From: Obrimoposthia wandeli
Lineage: Eukaryota
DNA length: 64,000 nt
Reading direction: 5' to 3'
Assembly (NCBI GenBank): GCA_977020255.1
Contig: CDROCS010001630.1
Span: 1-64,000 of the forward strand
Part shown: one piece after another, positions 25,801-28,800 of the stretch
Layout: each line of letters opens with the position of its first letter
Position numbering within the stretch: position 1 is the first letter of the stretch
Translations under genes and position numbers: made by a program
The notes under the pieces: model-generated
Database searches by the model: none
The model's input: only the letters and a program-made list of their open reading frames with translations
Told to the model about the DNA's origin: nothing

Positions 25801-28800
25801 TAATAAACATGTCAGTACATTATTGAAAATACATAACATTAATCATCATTTAGTGTTTTCACAATATAATGCTGCTTTAGTTGAACGCTTTAATCGAATA
25901 TTGACAGATCAATTAAAAAAGTATTTCACTAAGCAGGGAAATAAGACTTGGGTCAGTGTTTTACCCAAAAAAAAATAATACAAAATAAAATTACATGTTT
26001 ACAACCATAGTTAATACTCACAATTGGAGGGAAAGATCTATGATTCCAAGTGATATGTTCACATATTTTAAAGCTCTCAAAGTTCCGTCACGTAATGGAA
26101 TCAGAGAAAGTCTGTTATTTTTTAGTTTCAAGTCATACTCAATTTTCTCTGAATGTAGCAATAGTTATTCAAAACCATTACTACTTCGTTATTTCAATGA
26201 ATATTCGTATCATTTAATATAAGTCTAGTTTTACTAAATGGTATTTAATATAGTGCATGGGCCATTTCATGTGAAGAATTGATGTCACATAATGGACCTC
26301 CGCAATTCTGATCAGAAATTGTTTAAAATTCCTGGTATAGTTGTTGGGATATTAATTAAAAGAAATAATTAATTTTTAAGTCAATTTAAATTGACATTTA
26401 ATATTTATCTAAAATGCCCACAATTAGGGAGGTTTTCAAGTTCAGCCTCCGGCGGGGTGGTCCCGTTTCGCCCTGTCGGGCTCGTCAGGAAGGCGGCGAG
26501 GAAGGTGGTTAGCGGAATGGATTTTTATCTCGAGTGTAAATTGACATTTAATTTTTATGACTGGAGAATACCGCCCAGATACAACCACCTTTCTCTCTCT
26601 CTCTCGGGCAGCTCTAGATCTCTCCTGCCAACCTATATTCGCTGATACCCGCAAAACTGTTTAGTGGTTTGTCTCATCCCATTTCGGAGACAGTTACCTC
26701 ATGCAGTCCACATCACTGCAACATCAATGCGTGTGGTATGTCGCCATTCGCCACGGAGAAGTTGTGGACTTTTCCCTCACTGTCTTCCCCTTGCCGGATG
26801 TGTACCGATCGTGACCAGACCTGTGTGCATGTGTTGCTGGAGGTTGGGATGGTGTGTTAACCAACAGAAGCAACAGCAACGACACCGGCTGCACTCTGAC
26901 GCAAATGTCATTCCCTTATCCGCTGTCACTCTCTCTCAATCTTGCTGCCTAATGCAGTCGTGGAAGATTTCATCAATGCAGAATGATCTCTATAAATGAA
27001 ATTGGGATTTGCACAAAACACACAACTTTTCAACCTGAAAAAAATTTACAACAATTTCTTGTTCAAAAATATTGAAATCTGATTTTATTGATGAAAATAC
27101 AATTTACGTTTGTAACAATTTGAAGCGGCTTATTTTATTGATGAAAATACAATTTACGTTTGTAACAATTTGAAGCGGCTTATTTTATTGAGGAAAATAC
27201 AATTTACGTTTGTAACATAACATAGTTGTAATATTACCTAATTTAAGGTTCCTAACTTCAAAATATGCATTTTCAACCGTCATGGTGATGTTCAAAATAT
27301 AACGTCATTAGGTATAAAGCCTTCACAATAATACTTAAAATAGGCATTTACACGTATTCGATCCTCTAGGAATTTATTATCCATCAGCGCTCATCAGACA
27401 TGTGAAAACTCAACTTTAGCTTTTAGAGTTTTGAGTTAGTGAGAAGTGAAAGATTTTGATTTTAGAATTTTGAGTTAGTGAGAAGTAAAAGATTTTGATT
27501 TTGGAATTTTGAGTTATTGAGAAGAAAAAGATTTTGATTTTAGAATTTTGAGTTAGTGAGAAGTAAAAGATTTTGATTTTGGAGTTTTGAGTCTAAAGTG
27601 AGAATTGAGAGATTTTGCTTTTAGAGTTGAGTTAAAGAGAGAATTAAAACCGTCATGGTGATGTTCAAAATATAACGTCATTAGGTATAAAGCCTTCACA
27701 ATAATACTTAAAATAGGCATTTACACGTATTCGATCCTCTAGGAATTTATTATCCATCAGCGCTCATCAGACATGTGAAAACTCAACTTTAGCTTTTAGA
27801 GTTTTGAGTTAGTGAGAAGTGAAAGATTTTGATTTTAGAATTTTGAGTTAGTGAGAAGTAAAAGATTTTGATTTTGGAATTTTGAGTTATTGAGAAGAAA
27901 AAGATTTTGATTTTAGAATTTTGAGTTAGTGAGAAGTAAAAGATTTTGATTTTGGAGTTTTGAGTCTAAAGTGAGAATTGAGAGATTTTGCTTTTAGAGT
28001 TGAGTTAAAGAGAGAATTAAAAGACTTTGATTTTAAAGTTGAGTTAAAGAAAGAATTAAAAGATTTTGGATATATAAGCTTGAGTTAAAGAGAGAGTTGA
28101 AAGATTTTGATTTTAAAGTTTTGAGTTTAAAAAGAGAATTGAAAGAGTTGTGTTTAGAGATTTTAAATTTAAAAAAATATATAAATCGCGTTTTGATTAA
28201 AAGATAATTTGCGTTTCGACTCAAAGATAAATTGTATTTTGACTAGGAGATAAATTGTGTTCTGACTAAAAGAGAAAGTGTATCTTAAAATAAAGAGTAT
28301 AGAACTCGTAAATTGGTTAGACCGATTAAAATCGATACGTTAAGACATCCCCAATGTGTGACGCTTAGTGCAGTAGTTACCTGTGTAATTTTTAGGAACT
28401 TAGGTAGTGTGAGTTTAGAAAATAAAGATTTCTTACATTAGACAGTGTTGTCAAATCCTTGCAATCAGGTCAGAACCAACCCTCTATATATTACACCACA
28501 CTAAGGGAAATTTTCCAGTGCCGTTGACATAGCTCTTCGCACATCTCCACGACAACCAACAAAAACAAACCTTCAGATTAGACAGGTAAGCACAATCTAA
28601 GTAGACCACAAACAACTGCAAGCCCTACTTCTATAGAACTCACGTTGGGGGCCTCCATCAGAGGATCTATCCAGTAGTTTCATATAGAAATCCCCAACAA
28701 ATGCAAAAAAGTGTATTTATATGTGTGTCTACAATTACGTATACATTACAAATATATCTTCCATTTAATTTTGATATTATATCTTAAAAATTATGTACTG

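Follow-up and report, generated by a model that had tools for sequence, protein, structure and literature searches.

An antisense type I hammerhead motif in the long terminal repeats of a gag-env-pol Ty3/Gypsy family of Obrimoposthia wandeli

The ribozymes known from retroelements (R2, RTE, Penelope and the retrozymes) are described as releasing or circularising the sense RNA of their own element (PMC6765202). The plant LTR retrozymes are presented in PMC4918200 as non-coding and non-autonomous elements of 1-1.5 kb, which carry a type III hammerhead on the transcribed strand and are primed by tRNA-Met. The hammerheads of Penelope-like elements and of the animal non-LTR retrozymes are reported in pseudo-LTRs or in tandem repeats of 150-400 bp, described without a primer site or true LTRs and often with a weak stem III (PMC4209133, PMC7229834, bioRxiv 10.64898/2026.07.22.740005). 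Among the LTR elements proper, a gag-env-pol order has been reported from nematodes, bryozoans and flatworms (PMC13524379, PMC6431247), and the ORF3 of rotifer LTR retrotransposons is given as an RNase D-like protein of the DEDDy type (PMC5408684). The main text of PMC13524379 contains none of the words "ribozyme", "exonuclease" and "antisense", and that of PMC5408684 has neither "hammerhead" nor "ribozyme". More generally, full-text searches of the main texts of open-access papers gave no hammerhead in Polintons or in autonomous animal Gypsy LTRs.

Two hammerhead copies and the LTRs that carry them

The sequence analysed here is a stretch of 64,000 nt of the O. wandeli genome, hereafter called the window. 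It contains two hammerhead copies, A and B, within the following features:

25802-26032, plus strand: Polinton-type integrase fragment (the "relic"), a bystander, with 58% amino acid identity (tblastn) to the Polinton integrase of the window
26044-27349 (parts 26044-26341 and 27223-27349), no strand assigned: unclassified dispersed repeat of about 425 bp hit by LTR B, whose flanks are contiguous at many other loci
26338-26341 and 27223-27226, plus strand: 4-bp target-site duplication TAGT, present as a single TAGT at the empty sites L262 and L263
26342-27222, plus strand: solo LTR of subfamily B, 881 bp, TG..CA ends, holding copy B
26445-26494, minus strand: type I hammerhead, copy B, with C-G atop stem II, loop 2 GACA and cleavage triplet GCC (predicted to be crippled)
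45840-56921, no strand assigned: host Polinton copy, with polymerase-like frames, a protease-like and a major-capsid-like frame, an integrase with chromodomain, a packaging ATPase and a TBP-like ORF
50154-51271, minus strand: solo LTR of subfamily A, 1,118 bp, TG..CA ends, between two Polinton genes, holding copy A
51120-51169, plus strand: type I hammerhead, copy A, with U-A atop stem II, loop 2 GGCA and an intact GUC

The motif is of type I, with the core CUGANGA and GAAA joined by stems I to III and with stem I open. Copy B has the full layout (a 6-bp stem I, CUGACGA, a 4-bp stem II, GAAA and stem III), and the minimum free energy structure of its 50-mer is the hammerhead three-way junction. 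The folding energy by itself is not significant, since 14 of 200 shuffled sequences fold equally well (z=-1.66). No gathering-level match was obtained when the window was scanned with Rfam; copy A reaches 19.4 bits against Hammerhead_3 (E=0.42). The initial annotation had described the two copies as one ribozyme differing at four positions. Indeed, alignment within the window gives exactly four, all of the kind it had named: the stem II pair, U-A in copy A and C-G in copy B (26478/26473), one base of loop 2 (26476) and the cleavage triplet, GUC in copy A and GCC in copy B (26452). The block common to both copies is about 190 nt long rather than 50.

Both hammerheads lie about 100-150 nt inside solo LTRs. 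The sense strand of LTR B is the plus strand, and the ribozyme of copy B is therefore antisense to it. At the 12 fetched loci of the 425-bp repeat (10 distinct places), all 12 read straight across, without LTR or hammerhead, and at locus C3856 the integrase fragment and the repeat are both present with the LTR absent. In the window this fragment does adjoin copy B, as had been remarked, at 310 bp from the LTR holding the ribozyme. LTR A is flanked by the duplication TAAA (50150-50153 and 51272-51275), and the same junction is empty, with one TAAA, in the Polinton of C370. Contigs from four runs of one study contain joints that skip about 1,123 nt at the LTR A site; these are empty-site joints only and have no bearing on expression. 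TG..CA ends together with a 4-bp duplication were seen directly at 9 of 30 A-type loci.

An unbiased sample of 40 copies, taken at fixed steps from the first 100 matches to the core pattern, extends this picture. The LTR end is located 141-230 nt past the hammerhead core in 38 of the 40, and among the first 100 matches the pairs separated by 12-15 kb were on the same strand in 16 cases and on opposite strands in 1. The TG..CA ends and duplications, the empty sites, the LTR ends at a fixed distance, and the paired LTRs around genes and the primer site described below together establish a gag-env-pol Ty3/Gypsy family as the source of the solo LTRs that hold copies A and B. Two LTRs of different subfamilies were inserted independently: LTR A entered a Polinton, and LTR B a small repeat next to a Polinton fragment. 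In these LTRs the ribozyme is near the 5' end, before a GC-rich interior, and TATA-like sites are found at LTR nt 958 in subfamily A and 650 in subfamily B, with none comparable in subfamily C.

Other arrangements of the family were seen elsewhere in the genome. Five LTR fragments that belong to different hammerhead subfamilies share one strand over about 4 kb at L040:3480-7660, possibly a one-strand insertion cluster, and C3776 shows one local tandem duplication of 660 bp. Head-to-head copies at L007 and L014 had prompted us to consider a Ginger-like or other inverted-repeat DNA transposon, which the paired direct LTRs around pol rule out.

The parent element and its relation to Polintons

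Fifteen larger regions were examined for paired LTRs, and nine of them contain LTR pairs, 94-99.7% identical, which enclose the coding interior of an element of roughly 14 kb. The order of this interior is gag, a fusion glycoprotein (env), protease, RT, RNase H, integrase, two unknown ORFs and an exonuclease. Ends homologous to LTR B flank gag-env-pol in C377, C281, C3511, C604 and C370, in C1085 the gene set is accompanied by one complete LTR and one partial one, and each of five full elements (C377, C604, C281, C1456 and C1205) has its own 4-bp duplication. No LTR pair was found in the five D-type regions; the exonuclease is nonetheless antisense and downstream in several D loci. In C370 (G000:C370:53074-76167) a Polinton is nested inside one Gypsy copy, the reverse of the arrangement in the window.

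The env located between gag and pol is a class III fusion protein (PF24664, E down to 5e-34). The last ORF encodes a DEDDh exonuclease that is ISG20/SDN1-like (e.g. L031:3377-4540, minus strand), and it diverges far faster than the RT, with identities of 37-95% and 84-98%, respectively; in the comparison of subfamilies, the RT is 84-96% identical and the exonuclease drops to 37-68%. No relative of this exonuclease was found in metagenome contigs, which include few animal genomes. The best RT matches are 47-61% identical, the named ones being of Gypsy type. The 5' LTR is followed by a primer site with 12 nt complementary to the 3' end of the host tRNA-Trp. An array of about 36 tandem tRNA-Trp genes spaced by 207 bp at G000:C5734:143176-151119 likely supplies the primer tRNA; ARAGORN called this array, and neither of two isolated tRNA-like matches. 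At the position expected for the polypurine tract, before the 3' LTR, there is only a C-run and then a short purine-rich end (e.g. C377, C243 and C1905). This atypical region is common to the whole clade, with or without ribozyme, and its presence in ribozyme-free relatives rules out the ribozyme as a substitute for the polypurine tract.

The ribozyme is antisense to genes and primer site alike in all nine paired elements, as well as in C1085 and C1, and the same orientation holds in the 40-copy sample at 9 of the 9 loci with an exonuclease match. The hammerhead is kept among subfamilies that have little in common in the LTR DNA around it. Of six env-bearing elements at a greater distance (RT 57-60%), three have large LTR pairs, with no hammerhead in them (0/3), and the other three have no usable pair. 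Judging from these relatives, the ribozyme and the exonuclease look like additions of this Gypsy clade. The same genome abounds in related families that lack the ribozyme; elements of this kind can therefore do without it.

Is the ribozyme a feature of the Polinton family, as the initial annotation had proposed from the two Polinton contexts? It is borne by the LTR, and both the Polinton junction and the repeat flanking copy B occur without this LTR. In 3.3-kb windows, Polinton genes were found nearby at 13 of the 30 A-type loci and at 11 of the 30 B-type loci (24/60), compared with 19 of 60 control windows (Fisher p=0.45); beside the sampled hammerheads they were found in 11 of 40 cases (p=0.82 against the same controls), and at C and D loci in 7 of 30 and 5 of 30, respectively. 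As controls (L084-L103), 20 stretches of 10 kb were taken at round coordinates on 11 large contigs, and every stretch was divided into three windows, which leaves these less than fully independent; part of every test window is occupied by the LTR, and the queries were only the Polinton proteins of the window itself. Copies are thus not consistently linked to Polinton genes, and most lie outside Polintons. An LTR family that prefers Polinton targets, or a ribozyme that serves Polinton transcripts, could be argued from the location of both window copies in or near Polinton DNA, from the A-type and B-type counts, and from L016, which sits inverted in nearly the same Polinton junction. The 13 of 30 seemed strong and fell once the controls were counted, the insertions occupy differing Polinton positions (including the interior of the integrase gene), and Polintons with an empty junction exist; we regard either form of this link as very improbable.

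The genome itself is unusually rich in Polintons, with matches in 8 of the 20 control stretches. In the host copy, Pfam supports the integrase, the chromodomain, the ATPase and the TBP; the polymerase, protease and capsid frames have no Pfam match, and these putative labels follow motifs and gene order. The TBP-like ORF (56523-56921, minus strand; PF00352, E=1.6e-11) recurs beside the ATPase in other Polinton copies. The integrase region has a second partial copy 3.8 kb downstream, 91-94% identical (53679-54764 and 57507-58583). In another part of the window, 36889-43000, a 435-bp unit with a strong strand skew is repeated in tandem at least 14 times, almost without change.

Structural conservation of the hammerhead and the GCC of copy B

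A degenerate core pattern of 25 nt is matched exactly 5,962 times in the genome (1.35 Gb), and its reversed control 0 times, so the motif is not due to chance. The same pattern gave 0 matches in metagenome and viral contigs, collections which hold few animal genomes. Divergent copies were sought with a covariance model within the fetched loci, and 186 distinct hammerheads were parsed from 229 profile matches. A different hammerhead-like motif was seen at G000:C1905:249392-249433 (L236), outside any LTR of the hammerhead-bearing family.

The change atop stem II, which had been read as compensatory, holds at the level of the family: the pair is C-G in 113 of the 186 copies, U-A in 67 and something else in 6. 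This switch separates subfamilies and is one of five frequent pair variants; it is seen with more than one loop 3 type, which implies recurrence or recombination. The structural selection suggested from this one pair is supported by further pairs. In 16 real copies picked to span the subfamilies, which represent a few lineage events rather than independent copies, 6 of 18 pairs show two-sided change (four in stem I, one in stem II and one in stem III), and every one-sided change is a G-U on the ribozyme strand. Pairing is kept in 93.7% of the cells of this alignment, as against 26-49% in slid controls, and the covariation score, uncorrected for phylogeny, was attained by 0 of 500 shuffles and the pair count by 33 of 500. 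Among six subfamily copies, identity is 0.70-0.96 in the ribozyme, 0.34-0.76 in the 60 nt upstream and 0.44-0.85 downstream. Loop 3 varies freely and the catalytic core is kept, together with an upstream GCC (169/186) and a downstream UGA (177/186).

The GCC directly before stem I could pair with the GGY of loop 2 (G-C in 11 and G-U in 4 of the 16 copies), a pairing that is unproven as no two-sided change occurs in it. A U at position 1.7 is present in 185 of 186 copies, along with an A-ended tetraloop 2, and for a contact of this kind faster cleavage has been reported (PMC9217987). Against selection on the fold, the energy of the hammerhead structure exceeds that of the ensemble by 1.9-6.1 kcal/mol in subfamilies A, B and N, although it is close to the minimum in C, D and F (0.2-1.2 kcal/mol). 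Taken together, the sequence comparisons indicate that the hammerhead is likely a selected self-cutter.

Hammerhead cleavage triplets follow the NUH rule and include an A15.1-U16.1 pair. The family has such a triplet, GUC in 168 of the 186 distinct copies; copy B departs from it, and its GCC breaks A15.1-U16.1, so that by the rule, under which the initial annotation had expected it to be crippled, this copy is likely dead. The predicted cleavage sites are 51163/51164 in copy A and 26451/26450 in copy B. Its nearest relative, L042, is 97% identical, shares loop 2 GACA (10 of 186 copies) and retains GUC. In the sequence context of copy B, GCC occurs 6 times in the genome and GUC 1,343 times; within the B set, GCC is found in 1 of the 28 ribozymes recovered by the pattern, 2 of the 30 loci being unmatched by it. 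Judged from these counts, GCC is sporadic post-insertion decay, as a decaying solo LTR may show, and no evolved variant.

Possible roles and comparison with known systems

What could a hammerhead do on this strand? Its position in the outer end of the LTR, likely U3, opposite to the element genes, implies a new role, as a conserved antisense ribozyme in the two LTRs of an env-bearing, autonomous Gypsy family can neither release nor circularise the sense RNA. We propose, at about an even chance, that it is a cutter of antisense RNA which decaps, at the 3' LTR, the RNA bound for the element interior. Antisense transcription would start in the GC-rich LTR interior or in the host flanks, and the RNA would meet the ribozyme 100-200 nt before leaving the LTR. 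At the 3' LTR the cut would part the cap from RNA running antisense into exo-pol-env-gag, and this separation would leave less processed antisense RNA for dsRNA or piRNA silencing. Fast ribozyme cleavage is reportedly able to abort co-transcriptional processing. Selection would bear on active elements only, and inserted copies such as B would decay, which could account for its GCC. For all this we infer that the ribozyme is active, that antisense RNA reaches it and that the cut benefits the element. A tentative extension, which we think possible though on the unlikely side, is an anti-silencing module in which a fast antisense LTR hammerhead would act along with the ISG20/SDN1-like exonuclease, the latter trimming small or single-stranded RNAs. 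If true, this would be the first ribozyme in an autonomous LTR element to serve counter-defence and not the processing of its own genome.

The downstream 5'-OH product of ribozyme cleavage is reported to be stable in human cells (PMC6938672). Cutting thus need not destroy the antisense RNA, and a ribozyme that makes a defined product stays alive as a rival: the cut could set the 3' end of an antisense LTR RNA of about 0.7-0.9 kb that is capped and not polyadenylated, or give a long antisense RNA its stable 5'-OH start, and cuts at both LTRs could yield a retrozyme-like antisense RNA of unit length, able to circularise. The conservation data (pairs, ribozyme as against flank identity, core) also fit such a product, and the hammerheads of the plant LTR retrozymes are described as releasing circles (PMC4918200). 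However, the primer site belongs to the opposite strand, so an antisense circle would not be tRNA-primable, the subfamilies show little conservation of the LTR interior on the upstream side of the motif, and no supported antisense ORF was seen; we judge a product-making ribozyme unlikely. Nor does the motif have to act as a ribozyme at all. It may have been captured once from a Penelope-like element or a retrozyme, and kept as a DNA promoter motif or sense-strand hairpin, or merely carried along. Penelope-like elements and the retrozymes of animals typically carry type I hammerheads (PMC7761336), exchange of modules between LTR and Penelope-like elements has been reported in rotifers (PMC5408684), and the high RT identity among subfamilies (84-96%) indicates a young clade. 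Against passive retention stand the compensatory changes in all three stems, the restriction of G-U to the ribozyme strand, and a catalytic core that is invariant while the flanks and the exonuclease (down to 37% amino acid identity) diverge, which makes it improbable in our view.

Under the preferred reading, that of an antisense cutter, the genome would be seeded with about 6,000 predicted strand-specific RNA cut sites, which could also affect host transcripts crossing solo LTRs. For comparison, the same genome already contains several subfamilies with natural compensatory variants, copies such as B that are presumably dead, and sister families free of the ribozyme.

The closest described systems each share part of this organisation. 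With the plant LTR retrozymes (PMC4918200) the family has in common the LTR hammerhead, the 4-bp duplication, a primer site, Ty3/Gypsy-type ends and solo LTRs. Here, however, the carrier is a coding animal element of roughly 14 kb, with a type I motif, tRNA-Trp priming and a ribozyme antisense to the primer site and the genes; the coding interior, the type and the strand rule out an LTR retrozyme. The Penelope-like and animal non-LTR retrozyme hammerheads (PMC4209133, PMC7229834, bioRxiv 10.64898/2026.07.22.740005) are likewise of type I, exist in thousands of copies and are located in terminal repeats, but the present ones have a 5-bp stem III and an LTR carrier inserted by integrase; since 38 of the 40 sampled copies have an LTR end at a constant distance, a non-LTR retrozyme or a Penelope pseudo-LTR is ruled out. 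The rotifer LTR retrotransposons with ORF3 (PMC5408684) also have an extra exonuclease ORF of the DEDD family after pol, which is DEDDy there and gives an ISG20/SDN1-like match here. Finally, the GAG-ENV-POL errantiviruses with an HSV/gB-type env (PMC13524379) and the planarian Burro elements (PMC6431247) display the same domain order, a PF24664 env between gag and pol, LTRs and a tRNA primer site; beyond these, the present family has a hammerhead in its LTRs and an ORF for a DEDDh exonuclease.
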